From IMG/VR virus record IMGVR_UViG_3300002092_000058, positions 1 to 53,234 of that record: a stretch of 53,234 bases of DNA. One strand, written 5' to 3'. A program made the position numbers and the translations under genes. Of the stretch, positions 4,201 to 37,965 are shown piece after piece; the first letter of the stretch is position 1, and each line of letters begins with the position of its first letter. Under the pieces are notes generated by a model. The model worked only from the letters and a program-made list of their open reading frames with translations. It did not search any database and was not told where the DNA came from. This DNA comes from a virus (taxonomy: Duplodnaviria > Caudoviricetes).

Positions 4201-7200
4201 CGCTTGTCATTAAGCGGGACGGTTGCTGACTCGCCATTTTGGATCCATTATTCCAAACCACAATTGCATTACTATCTGCTATATCCTGCGTAACACTAGG
4301 CGATGTAAACTTCCTTTCTGTCTTGGTAAAATTTCGCCTTGCTTCAACATTTCTGGCTTCTATTTCTCCAGCATGTCTTTTATAGTCATAAAATAATTTA
4401 GCAAATTCCTCCTTACTTGGTGGCGTAGAGATATTACCAAACGGACTGTCGCTTCTTATTGATTCTATTTCTCTTTGCAAGGATGTCCATTTTCTTGATC
4501 CATCATTTTCAGAGTCTTCCAGTGCTTTTTCCTTTAATTCAATATATTTTTCATCTTCATATAATTCAAGATATTCTTCATCTTTATAGTTAAATGTTGA
4601 TCTTATTTGTTTTATTTTGTCAAAATAAATATCTCTAGCACGAATCATTTCTTTTTCGTACTTTTTTTGCTCCTCTAGCAATCTTTGCTTTTTTTCATAA
4701 TTCGTCTCTTTTTTGTTTTCATTAATTTTGTGTAGACTAGACCCCCATGCAAAATCTTCTATGTGCTGTATTCCATGTTGTATTTCATGCAGTAAAGCAG
4801 ATAAGGCATTGTCGCGCGTACCTGACTGAATGAGTATGCTTTTTTCTGACGGATCATAGTGCGACATAGCATTTGAATACGACGGACCTATGTTTAAATC
4901 AATAGGCAAATTATATAGCTCAGGATAAGCGTCAAATAAATGAGGGTGATTCAATACATCACCTAGAATCATATTTTTTGCATTTAGGGTTTTGTCTTTA
5001 TTAATAAGCCCTGCTTTAAATCTTGCGTTATTATCATTTATTTCAAATCGCCACTTTCCGTCAACAGCTTTAAACCACCCCGTATCCTCTCTAATTTTCT
5101 CTTTATCTTCACCAGCATCCATTCGTTGCTGTGCTGCGGCTAAGGAGTTATGGTTTGCTGTGTTGGCATTTTGACCAGCAAAGCCATATTTAATTGCTTC
5201 ATCTTCTCTACCAACATTATCAAACAACAAAGACTCTGGCGCAGACTTAAGTGCACTAGTAGCCATATCGCGTAATTCTTGTTCAGTAAGCTTATTAGCC
5301 CATTGCGAATACTTAAACTTGTCTTTACCAATAAGAGTATTTCCAATCGCCCTAACTAACCGCCTAAATGCTTCTATAATTCTTTGCGCTAAAGTTGAGG
5401 TAGGATTGTTTTCTAAAAAATACGCCAAAGCTTCTTCAGTAATATGCTCTTCTTTAGTATCAGCAGGTACGCGGTTAAAGGCTGCTTTTACTCTTGGGTT
5501 TCTTTCTTTTAACTGTTCAAATTGCGTCAATAAGGCTTTAAACTCAGCATTAGATTTACCTAATTGCAAAGCATGTACGCCGATCTCATGAAGCATTAGC
5601 CCCTTAATAGAATCAGATGACTGATCTTGACTAATATTGTCATGAACAAAATAGGTTGTGTCATTAGCAGGATTGTAAAAAGCAATAACATGACCGTCTT
5701 TACTGTACTTAATATCAAACTGCCCTGATACGACATTATCACCTGGTTCTCTTGGGAGGTCTTGAATTATTTCACCCGCTTCATCACGACTAATAACCTT
5801 AAACTTGCCAGTCGCCATTAATCTATCAGTCCAGCCGTCACCAAAAGTTTTATCCATGATGGATTTAATGGCAGAAGATAGGGATTGTTTTGTGTGGGTG
5901 TTAGATGGAGCAGTTGGAGTAGTCGTTTTACTAAATTTAATACCTTTGCTTTCTAAGAATTTTTTACCTTCTTCTTTTAAAATTGGTTGCATTGAACCAA
6001 TAATTGGGTAAATAACTCTCAACAAAGACCCTATTTCATCCATAGATACTCTGGCTTGCATTTCTTTACCACGAGTTATAAATGGACCAGTAATCTCTGT
6101 TACACGCTTGTTTCCAAAAAGAATAGAACCTTTAGCTTTTGATGACGGCGCATATAAAGTAGCGCCAGTAGACGTAACCATTAACCTAAAGTCGTTATTA
6201 GCTGACCGTATTGATCTATTTGTAGCATTAGAATTATTAATATAATCCATTGCTATATCAAGGTTTAAAAAGATAACAGGCTGTTTTTCTATTGCTTGTT
6301 TTAAATCAAATTTCTTAGGCATTAATACGCCTTGATTAATCTCACCTTTATCATTTGTGTAATTAATAATTTGACCAGTTGAATCAAATCCATAAGCCGC
6401 AAGCATATTTCCAGTTAAAATAACTCGATGTTCTCTTGATGTTGATTGTCCTTCATCTAAGGCGGTTTTAATAGAGTTTAAATTCCCTCTATTTACTGTC
6501 CAACTCATTCCGTTTGTAGCGCCCCAAGATAACTGGCTTAATGGTAACGTAACCTGTCTTGTTGCATCAGCAACATAAACGGTCATTTTCCATTGACCCT
6601 GAGCAAAGAAACTTTTTGCCTGTCCTTTTCTTTCAAATTTACCAACTATCCCTTCATACTTAAGACCATGAGGCGATGTTAATACAATAGGTTTAGATGG
6701 GTAAAAATTAGAAAACATTTGAACAAGTTGATTTCTTTGATGTTCCAGATTATCTTTCAATGCTTGTTTTCTTTTTACTTCTTTATCATCAATTTCTTCA
6801 ATTTTTTCTATTTCAGATAATGCTTTTTTGTATTCTTCATTTACCGTTTTAATAAATGATTCTTTAGCAGAATAAGAAGATTTGTCATCTTTAAAATCTG
6901 TTTTTTCTAACAATGAATTAATTTGATCTATTGTATAAGGCTTACCTAGTTTTTTAACATCTACTATTTCAGCTTCTACACCAGCCGCAAATGGTGATGT
7001 ACTTCCACCTAGTTCTTCGACAATATTCTCTGTATGAACAATTTTTGCATCTAAATCCATCGCATGAGCTTCTAACTGGTTTTGCCCAGTTTTTGTAAGA
7101 ATCTCTATATAATCGTTATATTCATCCTCTATCATTTGATAAAGCATTTCCTGGTCTTTTAGTTTAAGCACAGGAATAAGGCCTGTAACTTTAGCCATAG

Positions 7201-10200
7201 CATTTTCTTTATATAACCCGTTATTGCCTTGCGCTAATGGTTTACCAAGCATCTTGTGTAGCTCTGGATTATCAGTCATAACCGATGCAGCTATTTCATT
7301 TCCATAATCATTCATAAAATCTGGAACATCTTTAGCTTTTACGGCAGACTCTTTACCAGCAGTAGTATTAGCGTTAAGCATTGCCATTTTTTTAGCAAGA
7401 ATAGCAGAGGGTCTTTTTTCAGCAGGAATATTAGCTGTTAATTGAGAATAAGAAGGTAAATGAAGCTGACCTGTTCTATTGATACGCCCAAGCATTTGCA
7501 TGTGAGTATCAATATTTAATTCGGGCTGAGCAATGATCATGTGACGTTTTCTAGTATCACCACCTACTTTAGGACTAGAATGTAATGATAATCCTGTAGC
7601 ACCAGACTGATTAAGAATAATTACATCTAGTTTTCCATTATTAAAATCATTTACTGTTTTTCTTTTTCCTGCGGTACTTAATTCTTGTGCAGGTCTTATT
7701 TTATATATAGGAACATCACCGGAATAATCAATAATGTTCATACGTCCAGTAATTTCACCTGATTTATAACCTTCTTTTGCTAAAGCATTATGAATGGCAT
7801 CAATAGGCGACATTTTGTAACTACTAAAATCAAAGTTATTTATTTTACTTTGTATTTTTTTATAAAAACTTGAGGCGGCTTTTCCTAATTCATCATCATC
7901 CAATGGTCTTTTTATTTTATTACCCATTGCATCAGTTTCAGTAATGCGTCTTGATCTTTCTAGATACCTAGATAATAAATCACCGCAGTTTAGATTTATT
8001 ACATCACCAACATTTAACCCAACTTCATCAGCGTACTCTTTAATAACTGATCCCATTGTGCTTGATAAAGCTATTACAGGTTTTTCACCTCGCTTTAAAG
8101 CTTCTAGCGCTTCATCAATAGTTGGCTGTACTTTTAACATTAATAACATCTGCCCAATCATATTGTGCATGATGCTAGTAAAGTTTTGAGAATCAATACC
8201 AGTTTTACCTATTGCATTATCAGCGCTTACTTGGCTTGCCGATGCTTTTGCCTCATCTTTTAATGTACTTACCGCAATCGATTTTAAATCATCAAAAATC
8301 ATAATGTCGCGCATTACTTCCGCAACTTTTTCAGCAAAGTTTCTATCTACGTCAACAAAAGATGTTCCATAAACTATACCGTCAAACGATTTTTCTCTAC
8401 GAATATATTGACCTGATTCCGCAAGCATAGAAGCAACAGCCTGTTGTAAAGGGACGCCTCCGGCTACCATTGCTTGTTGTAATGATGCGGTATCTGCAAC
8501 TAATCCCATATCAGTTTTAGAATATAAATCTAATACGTCAGGTCGTTTAGCGTATGTAGCAGAAGAATAAAATACGCCTTTAGCTAATGACACAAGTTCT
8601 CTAGCAACAGCAGCTCTGCCTGTTTTTTCACCTTCTTCTGGTGCGCTTTTTCCTTGTTTAGGTCCAGCAGAAGTTCCGCCAGCATTATGACTTTCATCAA
8701 GAATCAACAAACAACCATCAGCTAATTTTTTTAAAAATTTAGTGCGTGTTGTAATTTCTCCTTTTACAGTTTGCATTTGATTGTAAGTAGTAAAAATAAC
8801 ATCACCTTCGGACAACTTGCCTGAATCAATCATGCTATTCATATTTTGTTCTTGTTTTTTACCAGAAGGCATACTAATAAATTTACCTCGTTTTTCTGGT
8901 ATCTTCTCTCCGCTCTCTTTAGCTTTTAATGATTCTTCATACCACGCATTAGCTTCATTATCTATAGGGATATTTTCGCCTGAATTTGTAGCAAAAGGTT
9001 TAACATCAGGCATGCCAATATCAGCTAAATCTCTAAGCATATCACCATAAAGATTAGGTTTTTCAGTTACAAATATTGGAGTCATTTTATTTAATATGGC
9101 ATAACGAATCATTGCCGCGTTTACACGACCTTTACCAACCCCTGTCTGATCACCAATAATAAAACCTTTACCGGATATAATATTATCTAAAGCAAGCGCA
9201 ATAGCATCTACTTGCTCTGCACTAAAATATTTACCAATTTCTTCTTTTTTGTAATTTAGTAAGTTAGCAATATAACTATCTATATCTCCATGTGCATCAA
9301 TAATTCTTTGTAATGCTTTTTCTATAGATGACTGCATGTTTACAGGTACAAGAGTACCTACAGGATTAACGGTACTTGCTGGAGTATAATCTGCTTGAAA
9401 TTTGTTTTCTACGGTATTAGGCTTGTTAGTAAGTCTAATGGGTCTGTTGCTTGTATTATCGTTTGACTCATCAACATTACTCTCGATGACTTGTCCGTTT
9501 GTTTCAACACTTCGCTCAGATCTAAACAAAACTCCGACACGTTTTCGGTTCTCACTTCTCCGTCTATTTGAGAATTGTCTAATGCCAAAATTGCTTCCTG
9601 CATCACCTGTTTCTGTAGAGTTGGATTGAGCTTCATCAATAGTGATTTCAACTTTTGACACGCTTGGTCTATTATCTGGTAGTTCATTTTTTAATTCCTT
9701 AATTGTATTAATAACTCTTGGCACATCAGCTGCAGGCAATCTTAATTTAGATTTGTCTTTACCATGTATAACAATTACATCAACAGGCCACTCAGCGCCT
9801 TGTTTAGCGTAAAGTTTTCCAGATACCGTAAAATGATCAACTACGTTATAGTCGTTATATAAATTATAGAAAAATGTACGCTTAGCTTTTCCATTGTATG
9901 CGTCTGAGCGTCCTTCTTGTGATAAATGACCCGCAGGCCCACCAATAATTAAAACAGCTTTGCCATCATCGTCCATGCCTTTTAATGTATTCATAACGAT
10001 GGCATGATCTACTTCATTAGTAGAATACATTGGCTTAATGCTATAAGTTATTGTGTTTCCATTATCATCCTTAACTGCGCCAAATGGAGGATTAATAATT
10101 ACAACATCCGACAAACCATTTTTTGTAAAACTATGTGTAACAGCGTTTTCTGTTGTGACATTAAACCCTTGCTCTTTTAACGACCTTGCTCTATCAGGAT

Positions 10201-13200
10201 TTAATTCATTTACAGTAGCTAACTCTGGATTAGCAGCTATTAATAACGCACCATTTCCAGCAGTAGATTCTGTGACGGTTGTTTTTTTAGTAATACCCGC
10301 TAATTCAGATGCAAGATACGCTAATGGCAATGGAGTTGAATATGCTTGCTGTTCAATGCTAGTGCTAGTTCTAACATTAAGGGATGGCATTTGGCCTGCT
10401 AATTTAACTAAAGCGTCAAATGTTTGAGATTCTGATAAACCTTTATCGACTATTTGTTTTCCGGCTAATACACCTGCAAGTTCTATAGCTTCATCAGCTT
10501 GTTTAGCTTCTATAGTACCAGCAACTATGTTTTGATCTGTTAATGCTTTTCTTGCCTGAACAATAGTGTCAAAAGATTGACCGGCTAATAATAAATCAGC
10601 AAATCTTTGTGAAGCATCAAATCCAAAGATTGATTTAACCTCTTTCTTGGATTCCTTTTCAATTTCTTCAATAGAATCATATTGCAAAGCCTCAGCTTTA
10701 TTGCCGCCAATTTCTTTTGCAATATTAATATAACCAGCTTGCAAGTTTTCTATAGATAATTTATCTGCAATTTCATCACCAGCTAGTTGACGTATTTGCG
10801 ACATTACATGTTGAGCCGCATCTTTAAATTTAATGTAACCCATTTTAGCCGCGATACGGAATATCTTTGACATAATAGGTATAAGCCGCGCTTCTTCTTC
10901 TTCTGTAAGATTTGTTTTTGCTCCAAGTAATGACGCTAATTCACCAATAGCTTGTCCCATTTGGTCTTTAAGGTCTGCCATTTCATCAGCAAGACTGTCA
11001 ATTCCTTTATCCGCTTCTGCTTTTTGCTTGGCTTTTAATTCGGTTTCTGATTCTTTTCTTGCTCGCTCGGCTTGTTCTCGCTCATGTTTTGCAAGTTCTG
11101 ATTCTGTGTATCCTTGGGGTATTTCTTCTTCAGGTACAGCAACGCTTTGTGTAGGTCTTTTTTCTTCATTAGTAATTCCCAGCCATTCTTCAAGTTCATT
11201 AAGTGTAATATCTGACCCTTTAACGTCAAAAGGAATCGAGTCGTCAAACTCAACTAAAACCCTGTTAATGTCGTCAATTGTTAGCTTACCATTTTCCATT
11301 TCCGCTTCAAGATGATTGACAATCATATCTTGAGCGTGAGTTAATTCAGTGTCGCTTTCGTAGCTGCCTCGCTCCTCATCTTCAGTGGCTAAATCATGTA
11401 GGCTTTCAAGTATAGCAACTTGTTTTGGCCTTAATTTTTTTCCAGCCTTATAATCACTTACTGCTAATTTTACCTCTCTAACCGATGGCGTCGAACTGTA
11501 AACATCACCATTTTCTTTATATATTAAAAACCTTCCATCCTTAAACCATTCAGGATTAACAGAAGGCGCTCTGCCTGTAATTGTGCCATGTTCATCATGA
11601 ATTAATGATACACCACCACCTTCTACTAAATCATTTGCATAAGATTCAATAGCGGGGTGGGATTCTTTTTTTTGCGCAGGCTTAAGCGCAGCTAAATTTG
11701 CTTGACTGTTGCTTGACTGGCTAACTGTTTCTGGCGCATTTTCTACGGATTCTGTGGCTTCCGTGCTTGATGGTTGCTTGATTGCTTCTTGTTGTTCTTG
11801 CGGTTCACCGTATCTTTTTACAAACGTATCAATGGATTTTATTAATAAAGTTTTTGATGGCTGAATAATAGTATGTTTTCCGCCGTTTTTATTAACTGCT
11901 TCAGCTTTCCACGTTTCATCATTGTTTTTTGTTATGGAATAACCTTTATAAGGTTTATTTGTCTTTGTTGATGATACTTGTTGTTGCTCACTAAACAAAT
12001 ATTCTTCTGCGGCATCTTTATCAGCTTGGCTAGGCTTTTCTATGTTAGCCTCAAATTGACGGGCATTAAATTCATCACCCCTATGCTTTGCTTCATCAAG
12101 CGCATTTTTCATAAGCCATTTATCAACGGCTTTTATGTGGACTGGTTTTATATTGCCTGTAGCTGTCTTAAATTTAGGGAACGTGCTTGTTTCTCTGCCT
12201 GATGATGTTAATACAGACTCTCCCGGCTCTAACTTTATGCCTACATACCCTTGTCTTTTAGTTGGGGTGGCAATCTCTTCTTTTGCGCTTTCTGTAACTA
12301 GATCGGGTTTTTTTTCAGTTGGTGGCAATTTAATAGCATCATCAGCTTGCCATTCATAACCACCTTTATCAATATAGACATTACCATCTAAATGCTGAAC
12401 TGGCGTACCATCGTTTAATTCATGAGTCGGCTCAAAGTTGTTATTATTCTCCTGCTCACTTGGTCTAGGTGTTGATTCCTGTTGTATTGGTACATCAGTG
12501 CCTGAGGATTGCTTCTCATTTGATACGCGCCCATTGGTTAATTCTCCTGTAGTTGGCTCGGCAACTGACTGATTGTTTTCGACTGCTCCTTGATTTTTTG
12601 CTCCATTGACCTGACTTGTTCCTGCATCAATAGGGTTGAGTTCTGTAGTGATTCCAGTATTTGCTTCTGTAGTAGTGGCTCTATCATTGTTTTGTTCTGC
12701 TAATCTCTCTTGTTTTTCGCGCTCTCTTTGCTCTTGCCATGCAATATTATTGGAATCAGTCTCAGGGATTCGAGAAGAACGTACATTTATTTCAGTTAAA
12801 TTGTTTCTATTTTTTACGGCTACTGGATTAAAATTTTCATCAACAAATTGGTTTCTATCAATTTCTCTAAGATATTGTCCATCAGGCGTAACATGGGTTG
12901 CTAAAAAATCTTGTTTAGCTAAAGGCAACGCAACACCAGCTAAAGCCCCTGTGTTCTCTGTCCGTCTTTCTGTGGGTTTGTTTGATGTTATGGTTGGCGG
13001 AATAATTGGAATATCGGCAGGTGAATTTAAATCTGCATTAGCTCCCGCAATGGCTTCATCAACATTCTTTGCTTTAGACAATAATCCGCCAGTTCCACCT
13101 ATCCCAAAACCAGCCATACCGCCTTGCATACCTGCGTTATTGGCTTGATTTAATGCTTCAGGTGTAAATGGATCTTTGCCTTCGCCTTTTAGTTCAGCTA

Positions 13201-14167
13201 ATGTTTGTAGATATTCCTCACCGTATTCTAGTGGTGCAGCTTCCAATGCACCAACACCACCCCTTGCAACACGTCCTGTTATACCCGTCATTTTACTTAA
13301 TACTTTGCCGACTGGTAAACCGCCTGTAATAGCTTTAATACCAAGCACTTCACCAAGCCCTTCAAGGCTACCTGCTACCGCACCCATGCCAAGAGCTAAG
13401 CCATGTTGCTTAGGCGTAATAACCTCGCCTGAATGTTCGCTAGTTACCTCGCCGCCAATTTCCCCCGACTCTTGACCTGTAGCTAATGCGCCAATAGCGG
13501 CAATTCCTGCGTATTTTTCAACCTTATTGGCGACAATATCACTCGCTAATCGAGCCGCCTCTTCTTCTGTTAATTTTTCTGTGCCTAATTTTGTAGCGTT
13601 TTCTGCTAATAACTTTTCAGTTTGCGCTACCGTTGCGCGCTCCATCATATTGGTAAATGCGGATTTTGCTACTGCTTTCCCCAATAACCCGCCTGCGCCA
13701 CCTGTAACAGAGGCAATGCCTAATTGACCAACGCCAGCACCTAGTGAGTGGGCTAAAAAATCGCCCATGTGTGACCAATCGCCCTCAATTCCTTTCTGTT
13801 TAGCATAATCCCAGTTATCAGACGGCCTAGCAGTTTCCTGTAATTCTTTTTGCTTTTCAATATATCCAGCTTCCCCCGCTTTACGAATCCCTGTAGCAAT
13901 ACCGCCCTGACCAAATGCCGTTTCTCCTAAAGCACCAATACCGCTAAGCGCACCATAGCCAGCTTGTTTAATAGCGGGGACTTGCTCTTTAAGTCCGCGT
14001 ATAAATTCGCCGTCAGCTTTGGGGTTTTTTACACCAAGATTGTCGTATATTTTTTGAATAGGTACATTAGGTGTGTATTCTTTGTGCAAGATAGGGATTA
14101 ATTCCTCGTTTGGAACATCCGCATATTCTGGAAATAACGCTCTTAATTTATTTAGTTGTTGCGACAT
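1283..14167 (-). CDS. giant polyvalent virion-ejected protein, DarB-like: N6-adenine methyltransferase + strawberry-notch-type SF2 helicase + two zincin-like HExxH motifs + LPD23-like + PLxRFG region
   Basis: 4294 aa; ESTAGNG and IINPPFG (MTase motifs I and IV); GDQTGVGKGR, LDESHN, SSATY, QMLGRINRTGQ (SF2); HEIGVH; TGWFKAVDGKWRFEIND plus HEIQH; YSPLMRFG; last gene of the ejection-protein cluster. Confidence 0.85.
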   Translation of the reverse strand: MSQQLNKLRALFPEYADVPNEELIPILHKEYTPNVPIQKIYDNLGVKNPKADGEFIRGLKEQVPAIKQAGYGALSGIGALGETAFGQGGIATGIRKAGEAGYIEKQKELQETARPSDNWDYAKQKGIEGDWSHMGDFLAHSLGAGVGQLGIASVTGGAGGLLGKAVAKSAFTNMMERATVAQTEKLLAENATKLGTEKLTEEEAARLASDIVANKVEKYAGIAAIGALATGQESGEIGGEVTSEHSGEVITPKQHGLALGMGAVAGSLEGLGEVLGIKAITGGLPVGKVLSKMTGITGRVARGGVGALEAAPLEYGEEYLQTLAELKGEGKDPFTPEALNQANNAGMQGGMAGFGIGGTGGLLSKAKNVDEAIAGANADLNSPADIPIIPPTITSNKPTERRTENTGALAGVALPLAKQDFLATHVTPDGQYLREIDRNQFVDENFNPVAVKNRNNLTEINVRSSRIPETDSNNIAWQEQREREKQERLAEQNNDRATTTEANTGITTELNPIDAGTSQVNGAKNQGAVENNQSVAEPTTGELTNGRVSNEKQSSGTDVPIQQESTPRPSEQENNNNFEPTHELNDGTPVQHLDGNVYIDKGGYEWQADDAIKLPPTEKKPDLVTESAKEEIATPTKRQGYVGIKLEPGESVLTSSGRETSTFPKFKTATGNIKPVHIKAVDKWLMKNALDEAKHRGDEFNARQFEANIEKPSQADKDAAEEYLFSEQQQVSSTKTNKPYKGYSITKNNDETWKAEAVNKNGGKHTIIQPSKTLLIKSIDTFVKRYGEPQEQQEAIKQPSSTEATESVENAPETVSQSSNSQANLAALKPAQKKESHPAIESYANDLVEGGGVSLIHDEHGTITGRAPSVNPEWFKDGRFLIYKENGDVYSSTPSVREVKLAVSDYKAGKKLRPKQVAILESLHDLATEDEERGSYESDTELTHAQDMIVNHLEAEMENGKLTIDDINRVLVEFDDSIPFDVKGSDITLNELEEWLGITNEEKRPTQSVAVPEEEIPQGYTESELAKHEREQAERARKESETELKAKQKAEADKGIDSLADEMADLKDQMGQAIGELASLLGAKTNLTEEEEARLIPIMSKIFRIAAKMGYIKFKDAAQHVMSQIRQLAGDEIADKLSIENLQAGYINIAKEIGGNKAEALQYDSIEEIEKESKKEVKSIFGFDASQRFADLLLAGQSFDTIVQARKALTDQNIVAGTIEAKQADEAIELAGVLAGKQIVDKGLSESQTFDALVKLAGQMPSLNVRTSTSIEQQAYSTPLPLAYLASELAGITKKTTVTESTAGNGALLIAANPELATVNELNPDRARSLKEQGFNVTTENAVTHSFTKNGLSDVVIINPPFGAVKDDNGNTITYSIKPMYSTNEVDHAIVMNTLKGMDDDGKAVLIIGGPAGHLSQEGRSDAYNGKAKRTFFYNLYNDYNVVDHFTVSGKLYAKQGAEWPVDVIVIHGKDKSKLRLPAADVPRVINTIKELKNELPDNRPSVSKVEITIDEAQSNSTETGDAGSNFGIRQFSNRRRSENRKRVGVLFRSERSVETNGQVIESNVDESNDNTSNRPIRLTNKPNTVENKFQADYTPASTVNPVGTLVPVNMQSSIEKALQRIIDAHGDIDSYIANLLNYKKEEIGKYFSAEQVDAIALALDNIISGKGFIIGDQTGVGKGRVNAAMIRYAILNKMTPIFVTEKPNLYGDMLRDLADIGMPDVKPFATNSGENIPIDNEANAWYEESLKAKESGEKIPEKRGKFISMPSGKKQEQNMNSMIDSGKLSEGDVIFTTYNQMQTVKGEITTRTKFLKKLADGCLLILDESHNAGGTSAGPKQGKSAPEEGEKTGRAAVARELVSLAKGVFYSSATYAKRPDVLDLYSKTDMGLVADTASLQQAMVAGGVPLQQAVASMLAESGQYIRREKSFDGIVYGTSFVDVDRNFAEKVAEVMRDIMIFDDLKSIAVSTLKDEAKASASQVSADNAIGKTGIDSQNFTSIMHNMIGQMLLMLKVQPTIDEALEALKRGEKPVIALSSTMGSVIKEYADEVGLNVGDVINLNCGDLLSRYLERSRRITETDAMGNKIKRPLDDDELGKAASSFYKKIQSKINNFDFSSYKMSPIDAIHNALAKEGYKSGEITGRMNIIDYSGDVPIYKIRPAQELSTAGKRKTVNDFNNGKLDVIILNQSGATGLSLHSSPKVGGDTRKRHMIIAQPELNIDTHMQMLGRINRTGQLHLPSYSQLTANIPAEKRPSAILAKKMAMLNANTTAGKESAVKAKDVPDFMNDYGNEIAASVMTDNPELHKMLGKPLAQGNNGLYKENAMAKVTGLIPVLKLKDQEMLYQMIEDEYNDYIEILTKTGQNQLEAHAMDLDAKIVHTENIVEELGGSTSPFAAGVEAEIVDVKKLGKPYTIDQINSLLEKTDFKDDKSSYSAKESFIKTVNEEYKKALSEIEKIEEIDDKEVKRKQALKDNLEHQRNQLVQMFSNFYPSKPIVLTSPHGLKYEGIVGKFERKGQAKSFFAQGQWKMTVYVADATRQVTLPLSQLSWGATNGMSWTVNRGNLNSIKTALDEGQSTSREHRVILTGNMLAAYGFDSTGQIINYTNDKGEINQGVLMPKKFDLKQAIEKQPVIFLNLDIAMDYINNSNATNRSIRSANNDFRLMVTSTGATLYAPSSKAKGSILFGNKRVTEITGPFITRGKEMQARVSMDEIGSLLRVIYPIIGSMQPILKEEGKKFLESKGIKFSKTTTPTAPSNTHTKQSLSSAIKSIMDKTFGDGWTDRLMATGKFKVISRDEAGEIIQDLPREPGDNVVSGQFDIKYSKDGHVIAFYNPANDTTYFVHDNISQDQSSDSIKGLMLHEIGVHALQLGKSNAEFKALLTQFEQLKERNPRVKAAFNRVPADTKEEHITEEALAYFLENNPTSTLAQRIIEAFRRLVRAIGNTLIGKDKFKYSQWANKLTEQELRDMATSALKSAPESLLFDNVGREDEAIKYGFAGQNANTANHNSLAAAQQRMDAGEDKEKIREDTGWFKAVDGKWRFEINDNNARFKAGLINKDKTLNAKNMILGDVLNHPHLFDAYPELYNLPIDLNIGPSYSNAMSHYDPSEKSILIQSGTRDNALSALLHEIQHGIQHIEDFAWGSSLHKINENKKETNYEKKQRLLEEQKKYEKEMIRARDIYFDKIKQIRSTFNYKDEEYLELYEDEKYIELKEKALEDSENDGSRKWTSLQREIESIRSDSPFGNISTPPSKEEFAKLFYDYKRHAGEIEARNVEARRNFTKTERKFTSPSVTQDIADSNAIVVWNNGSKMASQQPSRLMTSVNNDIRFSLAPLEDIWSDTAALPKTTTEELKDRLRDIKDTGRINIKALGLSALTQNQLVKLGEETLPIFKNFSVERNNYDVTEANIHKQGDDIANRWQRLVPNYKPMDKVWAARNKLEMHRLADMMNSMTVLELDPRETKPEDADTAVWDELVSNYNKLLPNSKKVLDDAEKFHKDRLNDLLSSIIEKLDNSNASIEDKKRMVKELNKKFKAIKGPYSPLMRFGPYWVDHAEGFNMFETKSAQERFIKQLKDNGIDINGFGKTLTDFQKVEGIDVGFVNDINDLIDKLDVEQGDMLKDSIFQLYLTALPESSMRKRFIHRKKTPGFATDALRSFSKKAFHDGKQIAKMKYMPKMKQALKDITMAVKAGDSTKEYERIQSNIEKLRDVLTQLNNGEQLSEIEGNAGLLNQFNRYSNQNELKSAINKYIDRQKDILKNADIYINAGKDSESIADIIKALQKSYANMADGNSVHLISSIANQTAFTYILGFSPSSALINFMQTPGVALPVIAGRHGFVKSSKALADATKTFFANKDQDGFSILNGLKNDGERALYMALSSNGTFDRSRAHDLMGLSEQGVERGTLHRDFMIASSYMFHHVEMANREITALTAYRMEFEKTGDVQKSIAYADEIVKETHLDYSSANRPDLFQGNAARVMLQFKMFSQGMTWLWGKTLYDAFKSKNPERKAEARNIMLCLSGTQIAAAGVLGLPIGGILMAVQALLSLFDDDDEPKDVENEIRKSLSNTLGPDIGRIISVGALSESGADFHSRLSLSDLWVREPDKELEGKDQAYYLLKTIAGPIAGVAENVLVGMKLIGDGNTERGIEKMLPNAFSGAAKSYRLINEGGAKSLTGETIYETNAYEQALQAIGMRPSGLNEQMNQNAAIKNREQAVQHVRQRLLNHAANAKIEKNASDLKDAMESIKEFNTKYPSDKINQASILRSVKKRLSNQKSSINGININKKLKELADEESFM
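9409..9687 (-). CDS. nested +1-frame gene (92 aa) inside the giant gene, between MTase and helicase
   Basis: SD TAAGGA 8 nt before ATG; product looks helical/amphipathic; the host frame is atypically Arg/Ser/Asn-rich over this span. Confidence 0.6.
   Translation of the reverse strand: MNYQIIDQACQKLKSLLMKLNPTLQKQVMQEAILALDNSQIDGEVRTENVSEFCLDLSEVLKQTDKSSRVMLMSQTIIQATDPLDLLTSLIP
11035..11169 (-). CDS. candidate nested +1-frame gene (44 aa, MKKKDLHKALLYLKKKYPKD...)
   Basis: GGGA 7-8 nt before ATG; lies in a linker of the giant protein. Confidence 0.35.
   Translation of the reverse strand: MKKKDLHKALLYLKKKYPKDTQNQNLQNMSENKPSEQEKNQKPN
12415..12534 (-). CDS. candidate nested +1-frame gene (39 aa, MGAYQMRSNPQALMYQY...)
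   Basis: Strong SD AGGAG before ATG; starts 3 nt after the stop of the 12538..12687 nested ORF. Confidence 0.4.
   Translation of the reverse strand: MGAYQMRSNPQALMYQYNRNQHLDQVSRRIITTLSRLMN
12538..12687 (-). CDS. candidate nested +1-frame gene (49 aa coiled-coil, MIEPLLQKQILESLQNSTLLMQEQVRSMEQKIKEQ...)
   Basis: Heptad-like sequence; in tandem with the next nested ORF; SD is weak. Confidence 0.35.
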   Translation of the reverse strand: MIEPLLQKQILESLQNSTLLMQEQVRSMEQKIKEQSKTISQLPSQLQEN

Positions 14168-33096: not shown

Positions 33097-33625
33097 TTTT
33101 TGCTGACACAATTATGCGCTCAATGCGAGTGTGTTGTTTTGCTACTGATTCTTCAGAATTTACTTTGTCGATAAAAGCTTTGTTAGCAGCCATTAAATTT
33201 TGCGCAGGCTTCATTGCATCATTAACTGTTTCGCCTAAAACCTTAATTAAAGCTATCGTATTTAAATCAGGTGACTCAACATCTAAATTTAAAATTTGAG
33301 TCGATTTTATGGCCGAAAGTTTACGAGCATTTAGCGCCTCCGCCTCGGCAACGTCTGCGGCCAAACAAGAAATATTGTTTAATTTGGCAGCTAAGTTTGA
33401 TGTTAGCTTTTGTCCGAAATCGTCCATCGAGTGATATTGTTGTGATATATCAACGATTTGATTAGCAAGTGTTTTTACTTGCTCAATTTGGCCCGTTTTT
33501 GTGCGAGAATGAATCGTACTAGACGGGACACCAAACCGTTTAGCCAGCTCGCGAATTGGAATATCATCAACTAATCTAAGCCTTATTATTTCTTTCCAAA
33601 CTTCTTCGGAAACTTTTTTAGCCAT
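33083..33625 (-). CDS. terS: terminase small subunit
   Basis: N-terminal HTH (IRELAKRFGVPSSTIHSR); overlaps the start of terL; C-terminal RIERII. Confidence 0.75.
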   Translation of the reverse strand: MAKKVSEEVWKEIIRLRLVDDIPIRELAKRFGVPSSTIHSRTKTGQIEQVKTLANQIVDISQQYHSMDDFGQKLTSNLAAKLNNISCLAADVAEAEALNARKLSAIKSTQILNLDVESPDLNTIALIKVLGETVNDAMKPAQNLMAANKAFIDKVNSEESVAKQHTRIERIIVSAKNAVT

Positions 33626-33691
33626 AAATTTTTATTAAAACTGTAGTGCCCGTGCGGGCTATTAAACCTAATGTCTGTGCGTTAGTAATCA

Positions 33692-33991
33692 TTACCACTC
33701 TCTCGCTGTAAAAGCCTGCCCAGTTGTTGCACCAATAATTGATATGGCTTTTATTGTTGCCCCGCCTATCTCGCTTGCGTAAGTCGCTCCTGATGGTATA
33801 CGTTCGCTTGGTGACGCTGCTACAGCCGTTGCGCCGAAATCATTAATCCACAAATCGCCATTTGATGCGTTAAATACTTTAAATCCGCGTCTTGATGGAT
33901 TTGCACCGACCAAAGCCTGTGCTGTGCCGCCCGTTGTTATTGCGCCGCTTAGATCAACTACGGACGCCCCCGCATACATTATAGTATCCAT
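33692..33991 (-). CDS. small beta-sandwich phage protein
   Basis: SGAITTGGTAQAL...NPSRRGF...GATTGQAFTAREW; SD GAGGAGG. Confidence 0.7.
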   Translation of the reverse strand: MDTIMYAGASVVDLSGAITTGGTAQALVGANPSRRGFKVFNASNGDLWINDFGATAVAASPSERIPSGATYASEIGGATIKAISIIGATTGQAFTAREW

Positions 33992-33993
33992 TA

Positions 33994-34266
33994 CTACCTC
34001 CTCACAGGCAGTGTTTTAGCTAAGCCCTGATCAAACATACTTTGCTGCTGCTGATCGTCTTGCACACTTAATAATTTTGCTGCAATTATTAACGCACTTT
34101 TTAAATCAGGTGCTTGTTGTGCGCCTGCTTGCTCTTGATTTTCTTCGCTTTGTTGTGATGCGCTCATGCTTTTCGGCATCGTCTCACCGTTTGACTCATC
34201 GTCCTGCTCTTTATATACGCTAAACGCACCCTGATCGTCTTTTTTAATGCAAACTGTAACAGCCAT
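33994..34266 (-). CDS. hypothetical protein, first gene of the late operon
   Basis: SD AGGA; 90-aa acidic/Gln-rich ORF. Confidence 0.7.
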   Translation of the reverse strand: MAVTVCIKKDDQGAFSVYKEQDDESNGETMPKSMSASQQSEENQEQAGAQQAPDLKSALIIAAKLLSVQDDQQQQSMFDQGLAKTLPVRR

Positions 34267-34314
34267 AAATAATCCTATATATTGATAATTTTTTATTTAT
34301 TGTACTACATGTAG

Positions 34315-34392
34315 TGTTTATGTAAATAAACTGAATTTTTTTGTATTTATTTGTAAAAGTATATTGACACATACAGTTTAAAATATTAAACT
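34315..34392 (+). promoter_or_regulatory. sigma70 promoter with palindromic operators
   Basis: TTGACA 34364-69, 17-nt spacer, TAAACT 34387-92; operators AGTTTA-N6-TAAACT at 34375-92 and TGTTTA-N6-TAAACT at 34315-32. Confidence 0.8.
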
Positions 34393-34438
34393 ATATTCAC
34401 GGTTTGGGATTGTCCTGAGCCATTTATGGAGAGATAAA

Positions 34439-34645
34439 ATGAAAAAAATAAGCGTACATGCACACGCACCACACATGATGTGCGGTGGTGTTTTAAAGTT
34501 ATTTCGCGGTGCTCGCACCGCGAAGGTGTGGATTAAGACCATACTCGCCCGACAGCCCGCAGGGCTGTCGGTATGTCAATTCAATGGGTGGCGGGGCGGA
34601 AAGCCCTTTAAACCCAAACAGTTCAGAGGCACGCCTCTGTTTTAG
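34439..34645 (+). CDS. possible small basic protein (68 aa) within the structured transcript
   Basis: Good SD GGAGAG plus ATG, but codon usage is atypical and no family is recognised. Confidence 0.4.
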   Translation: MKKISVHAHAPHMMCGGVLKLFRGARTAKVWIKTILARQPAGLSVCQFNGWRGGKPFKPKQFRGTPLF

Positions 34646-34879
34646 TCCCCGATAGGTGTAGTGTCGGGCGGGTTGACGCAGTGAAACGGAGTCAACCTGC
34701 AAGACATCACGAAACACCGTCAAGTCATTTGGAATCTATGTTTCAACCCCTTGTTGGGTTGAAACGAGATGACGAGGACGAATCGGGGCCGCCGCAGGCA
34801 TTAGCGGTCGCGTATTTTTTTGCTGATTTTTCGAGCAGGAGCCCGGAAAAATCTTTAGCAAAAATAGCGACTCCCCGCT

Positions 34880-34910
34880 AAAAAACCCAGCCTAAAAAAC
34901 TGGGTTTTTT
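34880..34910. terminator. bidirectional intrinsic terminator
   Basis: AAAAAACCCAG-N9-CTGGGTTTTTT between convergent units. Confidence 0.85.
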
Positions 34911-34953
34911 ATTGCCTAAAATTTACCACTAAGCTTACCCATAAGAGAATTAT

Positions 34954-35178
34954 TTACTGGGTAAATTTTCCCGTATTGCAAAAATTAACCAACCGCTCTA
35001 GTCGTTTCTCACGTTCAAGAGCGTTTTTTGCTATTTTTAAATGTTTTTTGTGCATACGAATAACCTTTAAGTATGCGATACACTCGTCATTGTAGTAAAT
35101 AAACCAGTCACTATTTAATCTAATCGCGCTTTCAATGTCATTTACGTCTCTTTTAATAACTTCAATATCACTCTTCAT
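34954..35178 (-). CDS. hypothetical protein
   Basis: SD AGGAG; coupled to the upstream ORF. Confidence 0.6.
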   Translation of the reverse strand: MKSDIEVIKRDVNDIESAIRLNSDWFIYYNDECIAYLKVIRMHKKHLKIAKNALEREKRLERLVNFCNTGKFTQ

Positions 35179-35470
35179 CTTTAACTCCTAAAATTAATTC
35201 GTTATAATCTTTTTCAAGCAAAACAAATTCTTTTTCAAACGTCCCTCTGCCATCTGTTAAAATTATCTCGCCCTTTTTAAATCTAAAAAAACTTGACTTA
35301 AATGTTTCGCTAGGAAGCTTAAGGCAAAATTTTTCTAAATTATGCGTATAAATAACAGTATCTCCTCGCGCTATGTTTTTCCAATCCGTTGATTTCATTT
35401 TTAACAACACTTTCATTTTTAATGCAAACAGTTCAGATTCTTTTGCAATTTTGTCATCAATATATTGCAT
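35168..35470 (-). CDS. hypothetical protein
   Basis: SD GAGGTG; coupled ORF. Confidence 0.6.
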   Translation of the reverse strand: MQYIDDKIAKESELFALKMKVLLKMKSTDWKNIARGDTVIYTHNLEKFCLKLPSETFKSSFFRFKKGEIILTDGRGTFEKEFVLLEKDYNELILGVKDEE

Positions 35471-35804
35471 TACTCACCTCTTTTACAGTTATCCCATGCA
35501 CAAACAGCATAAGTTTTCTTTTAATTATGTAATCTTTAGTTTTAAAGCCTTTTGTATCTTCAACAACTAAAGCACCTTTTTCTAAGTAAACAAAATCAGC
35601 TCTATATTTAACCGATCTCTCAATTTTTCCATCGCATTTAACTAGCTTAGGGATTAACTCATATTCAACCTGCAATTTTAAATCACTAATTTTCCCAGCA
35701 GCTTGCAAAAACTTAAGACATTGATACCGCTTAAATTCGAGCATCGAGTCAAACTTATAACCATCATATTCAGTTTTTTTGTTGCCGTACTTTTGCTCAG
35801 CCAC
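35457..35804 (-). CDS. DUF1064-family PD-(D/E)xK nuclease (putative resolvase)
   Basis: KYGNKKTEYDGYKFDSMLE...YRADFVY...VVEDTKGFKTKDYIIKRKLM. Confidence 0.85.
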   Translation of the reverse strand: MAEQKYGNKKTEYDGYKFDSMLEFKRYQCLKFLQAAGKISDLKLQVEYELIPKLVKCDGKIERSVKYRADFVYLEKGALVVEDTKGFKTKDYIIKRKLMLFVHGITVKEVSNAIY

Positions 35805-35937
35805 CTTGATACCTGATCAAAGGTGACCTGACAATATCATCGGTCGTAAATTCAACCAGCCCAATTTTTGGCACGCCAATCAATTGACGTAACCACGCAG
35901 CGGCTTTAGGATCAAATTCATTGTAATACGCTTTCAT
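35797..35937 (-). pseudogene. chimeric remnant: N-terminus of a phage C5-cytosine methyltransferase fused to a PhoH-like C-terminus
   Basis: MKAYYNEFDPKAAAWLRQLI + GVPKIGLVEFTTDDIVRSPLIRYQGG (46 aa). Confidence 0.65.
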
Positions 35938-36008
35938 TTGCCGCCCTCCACAATCGACAGCATCAACCACAAAATAAAAAGATAAGGTATTGTAATAATT
36001 ATTAACAT
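35934..36008 (-). CDS. 24-aa membrane peptide
   Basis: MLIIITIPYLFILWLMLSIVEGGK; stop overlaps the next ATG. Confidence 0.45.
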   Translation of the reverse strand: MLIIITIPYLFILWLMLSIVEGGK

Positions 36009-36271: not shown

Positions 36272-37965
36272 GGCTACCCACTTAAAGCGGGACAAAATAA
36301 GCGCTCGTTGGCAAAATCCTGTATTATGCGACAATGATTAAAAAAACAAAATAACCCAAGAAATACGCGCAACGAGCAGACTAATTTTCACTGAAATAGC
36401 CCATCATGGCAAACAGAGTTATCGAAAATTGGCTTCGTTGGTTAATCGCTCTAAAAGTAGTGTTCATCGGCACGAACAATCACGGGCAAAACGTAACCAA
36501 TACCCTGAATCAGCTTTTTGGGAAACTGAGGCAGGAGCCGCGTGGTTAAAACTGCTGGTGATTGCCGCCCTTTACACGTTCGGTATGGAGTGCCACGTCG
36601 GCGCTGATAAATTAGCTACGTTTTTTAAGTTGATTCGTATCAATACTCATGTGGGTACTTCCGCCTCAGCCCTCCGTCATCAACTGCATCAGATGGAAGC
36701 GTTATTACCTTTGTTTCAGCAAAGTTGTGAGAGTGATGCGAGTTCGTCATCATCGTCTCGTAAAGCCGTTGTTGCAGCCGATGAAACATTTTTTGGCGAT
36801 TTTCTGATTTTAGTGTTGATGGACTTGCCTTCAGGCTATCTGATTTTAGAAGAAATCAGTGAAGATCGTTGCTTTGATACCTGGCTTGAAAAATCGGTTC
36901 CACGTCTGAAAGCGTTGGGACTAGAGGTGAATCACACCATCAGTGATCGCGCTAAGGCCTTGATAAAACTAGCCGTCACGGGCTTTGAAGGCACCTCTGG
37001 AGCAGACACTTTTCATGCACAGTATGACATCAGTAAATGGTTGGGAGCAAAGTTAGGACGCCTTAAGGCTCTAGCCGAGAAACAGCGTGCAGCGACCTTG
37101 CAAAAGGGGGTAAAAAATCCAGAGATGGAGGGTACATTACTTGAAAAAGTGCTTCAGGAAGAGAATTCGTGCGCTGAAATTCAAGAAACACTCATGGATT
37201 ATCAGGAAAATCTGCTAGGAGTTTCTGATGACGTTCACCCCTTTTCAATAGTTGATAATACGTGTACAGACGTTGAAAAAGTCATTTCTGGTTTGGAAAT
37301 ACGAGCACAAGCCTTTGAAAAAATAGCACACGCACAAAAGATAGCCGATTCAAAGCAGATCATGAATAAGTTTCGCAATCAATTCAAAGGACTGGCAACC
37401 AATATCGAATTTTGGTGGTTGTGGGTCACCGAGATTTTAACTGATCTCGCTATTGATGATGTGACACAACACTGGCTTACTCACACATTATTGCCGGTAG
37501 TCTATTGGCATCACCAATTACATAAAACCAAGAATCCCAAGCAACGGGTAAAATACCAACAGGCTTGGCGGCGAGCAGTCAATACGTTACAGTCGGATAC
37601 CTTGACGGCTACATTACCTGCAAGTGAATTAGAGCGCTGGTTAACTTGGGCCGAATGGATGACGCGACAATTTCATCGTAGCTCTTCAGCGGTAGAAGGG
37701 CGAAATGGTTTTCTATCGCAAATGCATCACAATGGTCGCGGCCTGACGGAAAAACGTCTTCGCGCTTTAACGGTCATTCATAACTACGGGATTAAGCGTC
37801 TGGATGGAACCACAGCGGCCATGCGTTTTTTTGATAGGGAGTTTCCTGACTTGCTCTCATGGTTAGTTAATGAGATGGGGGAACTCCCTCTTCCTAGAAA
37901 GGCTAAAGATCGTGTTATTCATAACCCTCTGTTTTTAATAACTGTCCCGCTTTAAGTGGGTAGCC
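36272..37965 (+). mobile_element. insertion sequence, 1694 bp
   Basis: Perfect 23-bp TIRs (GGCTACCCACTTAAAGCGGGACA at 36272-36294 and its complement at 37943-37965); 8-bp TSD TTCATTTT at 36264-71 and 37966-73. Confidence 0.95.
36429..37955 (+). CDS. DDE-type transposase (DUF6399-like)
   Basis: AADETFF, ISDRAKAL, DTFHAQ, RSSSAVEGRNG; stop lies within the right TIR; N-terminal HTH extends upstream of the listed TTG. Confidence 0.85.
   Translation: MASLVNRSKSSVHRHEQSRAKRNQYPESAFWETEAGAAWLKLLVIAALYTFGMECHVGADKLATFFKLIRINTHVGTSASALRHQLHQMEALLPLFQQSCESDASSSSSSRKAVVAADETFFGDFLILVLMDLPSGYLILEEISEDRCFDTWLEKSVPRLKALGLEVNHTISDRAKALIKLAVTGFEGTSGADTFHAQYDISKWLGAKLGRLKALAEKQRAATLQKGVKNPEMEGTLLEKVLQEENSCAEIQETLMDYQENLLGVSDDVHPFSIVDNTCTDVEKVISGLEIRAQAFEKIAHAQKIADSKQIMNKFRNQFKGLATNIEFWWLWVTEILTDLAIDDVTQHWLTHTLLPVVYWHHQLHKTKNPKQRVKYQQAWRRAVNTLQSDTLTATLPASELERWLTWAEWMTRQFHRSSSAVEGRNGFLSQMHHNGRGLTEKRLRALTVIHNYGIKRLDGTTAAMRFFDREFPDLLSWLVNEMGELPLPRKAKDRVIHNPLFLITVPL

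Follow-up and report, generated by a model that had tools for sequence, protein, structure and literature searches.

A GC-rich island in an uncultured phage genome probably carries a truncated copy of a mobile, structured repeat of Methylococcales

The IMG/VR virus record IMGVR_UViG_3300002092_000058 (Duplodnaviria; Caudoviricetes) has 53,234 bases at an estimated completeness of 89%, and we analyzed its full length, referred to below as the window. An island with high G+C (window 34395-34915) lies in this record between neighboring genes that are on the − strand on both sides, and an earlier note made from the sequence alone had proposed that it is a novel phage non-coding RNA. Our analysis suggests a different origin. 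We consider it probable that the island is a composite of DNA foreign to the phage, and that positions 34640 to 34878 (+ strand) are a 5′-truncated copy of a non-autonomous, mobile, structured repeat of about 295 nucleotides (nt) from Methylococcales, an assignment based on homology and a shared fold. Methylococcales are the likely host group of the phage. The earlier proposal was correct in that the fold is real and belongs to no known family, but the 239 nt at the 3′ end are a copy of a host repeat that is nearly absent from phages.

The phage copy (239 nt) begins at approximately position 42 of the repeat unit, and is therefore without the first ~41 nt, which form the 5′ module. In complete units this module starts with CGCUG right after a C-N-N-N motif; it was absent from the phage copy, where the upstream sequence was unlike any 5′ module. 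Because it lacks the 5′ module, the phage copy is probably immobile. The rest aligned over the whole core to full-length copies. It consists of a multibranch domain closed by CCCCGAT/ATCGGGG and of two hairpins, one with a CUUGUU loop that is conserved in the family and a long one on the 3′ side with GGUCGC/GCGACU as closing pairs. After these comes a UCCCCG tail with one extra base, the C at 34878. The 3′ end of the family is conserved (...GCAAAAAUAGCGACUCCCCG plus N), and the phage copy bears the exact 3′ 20-mer. When the window was compared with 80 host loci, 34640-34878 was the sole match to the repeat family in the 53 kb.

Metagenomic data place the edges of the homology at the same positions. 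Part of the stretch was contained in 24 public sequencing runs (14 studies), most of which held about a quarter of its words. Five of the 24 contained at least half of the sampled words of a 651-nt query, and the remaining runs gave fractions of 0.06-0.29. The contigs of four runs were aligned to a 2-kb stretch, in which uncovered parts in runs X6, X8 and X20 are no evidence of absence. In three of the runs with the smaller fractions the contigs sat on ~34640-34880, and the boundaries of homology fell at 34640 and 34878-80. The freshwater run X6 yielded 43 contigs with unrelated flanks and a summed depth of ~1000, with eight pieces listed from records of 127 to 19,904 nt. A segment of 172 nt (34707-34878) was 100% identical to contigs in two freshwater runs, and the rest of the 2-kb stretch had zero cover in X6 and just three pieces of 38-40 nt with 6-7 differences in X8. 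The differences seen among contigs included paired changes in the stem 34740-49/34756-65. Among viruses the repeat was rare, being found in only two other IMG/VR records, one with six matches, in contexts that differ from this one. Homologues upstream of terS, which the earlier note had proposed to look for, were not found: none of 80 loci around related terL genes (57-66% identical) had the island by nhmmer or blastn, and terS itself had no relatives in IMG/VR.

In bacterial genomes the repeat is abundant. The 3′ 20-mer occurred in at least 120 stretches of a species-representative genome collection, and a second pattern in at least 120 stretches of metagenome contigs. Among the matches listed (80), nearly all carriers of the 20-mer were Methylobacter, Methylomonas, Methylovulum, Methyloprofundus, Methyloglobulus or methanotroph symbionts of Bathymodiolus; the 20-mer was present in only two of 201 sampled genomes of the class. 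Whole-genome searches of five carriers gave 26, at least 41 (558 candidates), 17, 24 and at least 41 matches, and one genome, G051, held 213 copies in 3.45 Mb (~295 nt each, roughly 63 kb). A full-length copy is 294 nt, running from CGCUG... to ...CUCCCCG, and 58 of the 147 matched segments in 80 loci covered all of it (1-294). Sub-families vary in the first 20-45 nt, the 5′ module. This module is also common to other families without an open reading frame (ORF). One of ~330 nt shares the first ~65 nt with the 295-nt repeat, has a different body and ends in ...GGCGCGCCUG; it was seen in loci L100, L121 and L165 and in other symbiont loci. A third family of ~300 nt with the same 5′ module had 11 members among the collected loci, and a 284-nt variant in Methylobacter was ORF-less too. 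Copies of these repeat families insert into one another. Runs of N on or next to copies in L088, L125 and L170 made a few copies unreadable, and contig ends inside copies of one draft genome proved to be assembly breaks. Full-length copies from three host loci had no match in Rfam 15, and searches of main article texts gave no description of such a repeat in methanotrophs. By these two sources, the ~295-nt family appears to be undescribed so far. Beside a repeat copy in L111 we also observed a long hairpin (1796-1914, − strand) that matched a plant microRNA precursor in Rfam at 32 bits versus a gathering score of 184, which is probably another palindromic repeat.

The fold of the repeat has left a clear covariation signal. 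From 179 candidate 3′ ends we obtained 150 trimmed cores and 46 representatives (no more than 97.5% alike), which were aligned with the window copy. RNAalifold reported compensatory changes in 19 of 32 pairs. When the minimum-energy structure of the window copy was mapped onto this alignment, 84.9% of cells were paired versus 42-50% when the partners were slid by 1-3 columns, 32 of 79 pairs were changed on both sides versus 11-18, and the covariation score was 0.172 versus 0.026-0.055, with none of 500 shuffles reaching the observed values, although the tested structure was taken from one member of the alignment, which favors that structure somewhat. Covariation, proposed as a check in the earlier note, was thus found for the repeat part, whereas the 5′ half of the island had no relatives to align. 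Since several pairs are G-U (G-T in DNA) in nearly all aligned sequences, the + or unit strand is the folded strand. The note had taken such pairs on the + strand as favoring RNA over a DNA cruciform, and they do rule out a double-stranded cruciform, but a folded single strand of DNA, which the replication-strand bias suggests for the family, would be compatible with them. Two candidate motifs were rejected. A hammerhead-like reading of CUGAAAA...GAAAC...GUC, examined by eye, lacked the core G and was variable, and a pseudoknot between the CUUGUU loop and AACAAG had no partner in the window copy.

Insertion of the repeat is exact, directly 3′ of C-N-N-N, and the target is neither duplicated nor lost. 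Among distinct 5′ flanks, 93 of 94 had the C at −4; with all sub-families and loci pooled, it was there at 210 of 214 ends. Positions −3 to −1 vary, and G is rare there. For 27 of 79 unique full-length copies we found an empty paralogous site, mostly in other copies of the insertion sequence (IS) elements or repeats that had been hit. In all 27 comparisons the insert exceeded the unit by exactly one base (A 21, C 4, T 2), and the target was left intact, neither duplicated nor shortened. Across all copies the extra 3′ base was A in 129, C in 94, G in 49 and T in 20. Joined flanks restored long ORFs only when one further base was removed (13-15 of 73, versus 2-3 in the other frames), and an interrupted ilvA gene aligned without gaps to an intact homologue only after removal of 295 nt. 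We considered whether C-N-N-N could be part of the unit; removing both leaves a one-residue gap in ilvA, and so the motif belongs to the target. Mutual information within the flanks showed no standout pair (highest value 0.33 bits, without a shuffle control), and the copies had neither terminal inverted repeats nor target duplications. Copies within long ORFs (n = 14) were sense in 4 and antisense in 10, so they are not introns.

The orientation of copies was compared with GC skew in G051, for which the sample comprised twenty stretches of 20 kb each, or 400 kb of the 3.447 Mb. Skew was positive from ~0.65 to 2.25 Mb and negative elsewhere. The folded strand lay on the G-rich strand in 33 of 37 sampled copies (binomial p 1e-6), while only half of the neighboring long ORFs (two per copy; 37 of 74) pointed the same way as the copy. 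The G-rich strand carried 187 of 319 long ORFs. Because copies match the skew and are indifferent to neighboring ORFs, their orientation follows replication and not transcription. In our analysis, this strand bias points to single-strand transposition like that of IS200/IS605. Transposition of IS200/IS605 elements is strand-specific: the active top strand leaves its site as a circle and then enters the lagging-strand template (PMC5027513).

A corresponding enzyme was sought in five host genomes. Y1 transposase matches were present in five of five, Y2 (IS91) matches in three, reverse transcriptase matches in four, and TnpB-type (PF07282) and IscB-type (PF14239) matches in one each. Ten larger Y1 genes were followed up; two of their loci had repeat pieces nearby, neither with ends common to the Y1 gene. 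In L346 (1400-1960), an IS200-type element with a Y1 gene and hairpin ends CTATGCACT...AGTGCATAG is inserted inside a repeat copy. In L383 (3268-3850, − strand), a Y1 gene of the RAYT type has REP sequences of its own on both sides (GTAGGAGGGGCTTTAGCCGCGAC), and its 5′ end carries a solitary 44-nt repeat 5′ module and a 52-nt duplication of the gene start. No upstream ORF was common to matches that covered only the 3′ part. Abundant ORFs near copies were considered as a parent element and rejected as unrelated DDE transposases. The IS with a DUF6399 domain in the window is a separate element; a related IS in L132 merely sits inside a repeat copy, which its end abuts.

The closest known kinds of element are ORF-less IS200/IS605 derivatives and the REP/REPIN-RAYT system, and several of their defining features were missing or only half present in the repeat. 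ORF-less IS200/IS605 derivatives (PATEs), which are mobilized in trans by the Y1 HUH transposase TnpA, likewise lack terminal inverted repeats and target duplications, insert exactly 3′ of a flanking motif in an orientation tied to the direction of replication, and have predicted hairpins near both ends on one strand only; Y1 genes occur in all five repeat hosts. Unlike in PATEs, just one position of the target is fixed (the C at −4), the 3′ end has an additional base that varies, the fold covaries over the whole 295 nt, and no parent IS with matching ends was found. REPs are palindromes of 20-40 nt with a GTAG foot, often in inverted pairs, unlike the ~295-nt multi-helix fold with defined 5′ and 3′ ends described here. 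The repeat resembles them in being folded, non-autonomous and present in very high copy number, and the mobility of REP/REPIN sequences is attributed to a Y1 enzyme whose single gene copy lies at another chromosomal position (PMC6006769). The RAYT gene that we examined has different REPs of its own and was itself hit by a fragment of the repeat.

Other structured or ORF-less elements fit less well. IStrons and mobile introns are multicopy in some genomes (PMC4227781), and IStrons and group I and group II introns share with the repeat a structured RNA-like body that equals the mobile unit and the absence of target duplication. Unlike them, the repeat has no transposase or maturase ORF and lies within genes in both orientations (the 4 sense and 10 antisense copies above), and the covariance models of Rfam detected no intron core. 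As in the omega RNAs of TnpB and IscB and in HEARO, a structure of 200-300 nt with a sharp conserved end beside a variable flank is present, and TnpB/IscB omega RNAs also sometimes have ORF-less copies. In contrast to omega RNAs, a partner nuclease is largely missing, with PF07282 and PF14239 each found in only one of the five host genomes, and Rfam gave no HEARO match. Classical bacterial MITEs (Correia, RUP, ERIC) are likewise short, ORF-less, multicopy, often intergenic and strongly folded when transcribed. Their terminal inverted repeats, and the target duplications that DDE transposases create on insertion, are both absent from the repeat.

We return to the phage island, whose G+C is 0.52-0.57 across 34400-34800 versus 0.25-0.39 on either side, in line with the GC-rich island in an AT-rich genome that the earlier note had described; the placement antisense to the flanking ORFs was also borne out, as all of these are on the − strand. 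The + strand of the island folded at -213.4 kcal/mol, whereas 100 dinucleotide shuffles gave -157.4 +/- 6.1 and none was as low (z -9.2), so the stability that the note had suggested comparing with such shuffles is beyond chance. The − strand gave -200.0 kcal/mol (z -8.2), and in every comparison the + strand was more stable by 8-13 kcal/mol, as expected from the strand-specific, non-random fold that had been claimed. All of the hairpins that had been named are in the sequence and in the minimum-free-energy fold. The two halves fold separately, with z -5.4 for 34395-34639 and z -5.8 for 34640-34878 (approximate shuffles). Likewise, the view that no recognized RNA family is present agreed with our searches. 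Rfam 15 gave 11 matches at E up to 10 in window 33500-36000, none of them near its gathering score (the best inside the island were 19-20 bits versus gathering scores of 35-95), and ARAGORN found no tRNA or tmRNA genes in the window.

Transcription signals around the island are predicted. A sigma-70-like promoter, TTGACA-17-TAAACT, lies at 34364-34392 on the + strand with a score of 10/12. The sequence reported in the earlier note is therefore present, but such sites occur at chance frequency, with seven found in the region versus 7.0 +/- 2.5 expected from shuffles, and for this reason we treat the promoter as a prediction only. An 11-nt inverted repeat (34371-34381/34386-34396) extends over part of the spacer and of the -10 hexamer and is a putative operator. 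At the other end, the bidirectional intrinsic terminator that had been described is present at 34885-34910 as an A-run, an ACCCAG/CTGGGT stem and a T-run; it is outside the repeat unit, and weak Rfam matches to terminator-bearing families fall on it.

The 5′ half of the island (34395-34639, + strand) is an orphan. In the minimum-energy fold it forms a row of near-perfect GC-rich hairpins at 34401-21, 34462-91, 34503-24, 34525-46, 34549-71, 34585-617 and 34624-39. No homologue was found in five host-type genomes (one 30-nt match, E 0.004) or among the collected loci (best E 0.003). For the island as a whole, blastn against 50,697 phage records gave no match, and a hairpin-pattern search of IMG/VR gave none either. 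The 68-amino-acid (aa) ORF with a Shine-Dalgarno motif in the earlier note was located at 34439-34645 (+ strand), with GGAGAG 7 nt before the ATG. It spans the hairpins, and its stop codon falls within the first bases of the repeat copy. It had no Pfam family, its sole match among 5.77 billion proteins was itself (an identical protein on four contigs), and as a translated probe it found no relative in IMG/VR. Judged from these sequence comparisons, the ORF does not appear to be a conserved protein.

The island is ~0.8 kb upstream of terS, in a non-coding gap between early (DUF1064, RusA) and late (terS, terL) genes. Upstream of it are a 74-aa ORF, a 100-aa ORF and the DUF1064 gene, and downstream are two small ORFs, terS and terL, all on the − strand. 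A divergent promoter-like site on the − strand, TTTACA-16-TACAAT (34299-34326), faces the operon of the small ORFs, terS and terL, and contains a perfect 12-bp palindrome, ACTACATGTAGT, at 34304-34315. Among the early genes, at 36273-37965 (+ strand), is an insertion sequence with a 508-aa ORF and a DUF6399 domain, whose terminal inverted repeats match perfectly over 23 bp (GGCTACCCACTTAAAGCGGGACA) and whose target is duplicated over 8 bp (TTCATTTT). It is richer in G+C than its surroundings and is 1.4 kb from the island. That this element landed there as well suggests that the region tolerates insertions. Elsewhere in the record, a single 4294-aa ORF (1283-14167, − strand) takes up one quarter of its length.

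How the repeat spreads is less certain than what it is. We hypothesize that it proliferates in Methylococcales chromosomes by single-strand DNA transposition, with an enzyme resembling a Y1 (HUH) transposase that would act in trans from a gene at another place in the host genome. Such a single-strand, Y1-type mechanism is the most likely one for the family, and we hold it tentatively. A number of observations weigh against it. In Methylobacter tundripaludum 13 of 18 copies followed the skew, which is non-significant (p 0.10) at a weak local skew. Y1 genes are common in bacteria, so that their presence in all five hosts is weak evidence, and a host genome with 17 old copies has just two marginal Y1 matches. 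The search for an autonomous parent or a cognate transposase came up empty: downstream sequence was readable over at least 700 nt for 129 5′ modules, and all of these belonged to the ~300-nt ORF-less families or were solitary. The Y1 genes examined have ends unlike the repeat, or none; the hairpin ends of the IS200-type element in L346 are its own and unrelated to the repeat, as are the REPs of the RAYT gene in L383. No end-to-end junctions occurred in 2.35 Mb of collected loci. IS200/IS605 elements normally need a specific tetra- or pentanucleotide target, whereas here only the C at −4 is fixed and the rest varies, and their mechanism leaves the variable extra 3′ base unexplained. Finally, covariation over the whole unit exceeds what end recognition by a transposase needs, and fits an RNA function. 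An alternative is an RNA-mediated route, in which the ~295-nt fold would be the active molecule and insert into single-stranded DNA at the replication fork or be copied by a host reverse transcriptase, in the manner of retrotransposing group II introns. Group II intron retrotransposition likewise has an orientation that follows replication, as the 33 of 37 copies in G051 do. The DNA unit starts and stops where a compact fold does, and this fold covaries along its full length and has invariant G-U pairs on one strand. The variable 3′ base (mostly A or C) would fit untemplated addition, and four of the five hosts have reverse transcriptase genes. Against this, no Rfam intron or ribozyme matched, full-length copies included, and the ends presumably do not fit the splice-site consensus of group I or group II introns. 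The reverse transcriptases at two of five loci are ordinary group II intron proteins by their Rfam intron matches, the others resemble defense-type enzymes when read by eye and have no ends in common with the repeat, and in one of the carrier genomes no reverse transcriptase was matched. With 10 of 14 gene insertions antisense, splicing would not protect the host. We regard an RNA-mediated route as unlikely.

For the phage, we propose that foreign DNA of high G+C content, with a repeat copy in it that now lacks the 5′ module, lodged in the gap between early and late genes. One transcript, beginning at the promoter-like site at 34364 and ending at the terminator at 34885-34910, may span the orphan 5′ half and the copy. 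The copy is most simply a passenger or relic in that gap. Two observations speak against a mere relic. The stems of the phage copy are intact and lie between a promoter-like site and a terminator, as in an RNA gene that is used, and family members appear in contigs of the RNA library X20, where carry-over of DNA is possible. These also belong to the case for a functional, stand-alone phage RNA of ~510 nt, made early under the control of a repressible promoter and acting as decoy, scaffold or anti-defense RNA, in which the host-repeat part would have been co-opted, for example to titrate the host factor that binds the repeat. The inverted repeat overlapping the promoter-like site, the extreme fold that is better on the + strand, and a strand opposite to all neighboring genes favor it as well. 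Intact stems, however, may reflect just recent capture, because 172 nt are identical to copies that are abundant where the rest of the stretch had nearly no contig cover. With nothing like the island at the 80 related terminase loci or in the 50,697 phage records, the two other IMG/VR records showing other contexts, and promoter-like sites at chance frequency, we find a functional phage RNA improbable. A small basic protein, the 68-aa ORF perhaps together with a 66-aa ORF at 34681-34881, with hairpins that are incidental or regulate translation, is very unlikely. The GGAGAG motif and 68 open codons speak for it, and a gene caller predicted the ORF, with the identical protein recorded on four contigs, but it has no homologue other than itself and no Pfam family, it stops inside a repeat copy whose homologues have other flanks, and changes in the repeat part preserve base pairs and not codons. 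A signal at the DNA level, such as a pac or cos site or a replication origin, would suit a palindrome-rich island in a non-coding gap close to terS. We give it almost no weight, since half of the island is a host chromosomal repeat with hundreds of copies, related terminase loci have nothing alike, and G-T wobble makes the two strands unequal, which a double-stranded protein-binding site would not need.

More speculatively still, and in our judgment doubtful as a whole, the repeat could be a new kind of mobile element whose entire ~295-nt body is a functional fold, as RNA or single-stranded DNA. The fold would guide the element to sites behind C-N-N-N in the lagging-strand template with the help of an enzyme that the element does not encode and that has so far been linked to no repeat. 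A captured copy without its ends, transcribed in the phage from a strong promoter, would then bind that host machinery or lead it astray during infection.

On the reading that we prefer, of foreign DNA with a truncated host repeat, what appeared to be a new phage RNA becomes a case of host repeat DNA carried by a virus, and it names a likely host group, the Methylococcales methanotrophs, for an uncultured freshwater phage. The repeat family is the more interesting outcome, with up to hundreds of copies in a genome, disruption of genes, a one-base target rule and an orientation linked to replication. It would also be a tractable system, through cultured Methylobacter and Methylomonas, for the mobilization of single-strand elements that lack an ORF and for structure that extends over the whole body of such an element.

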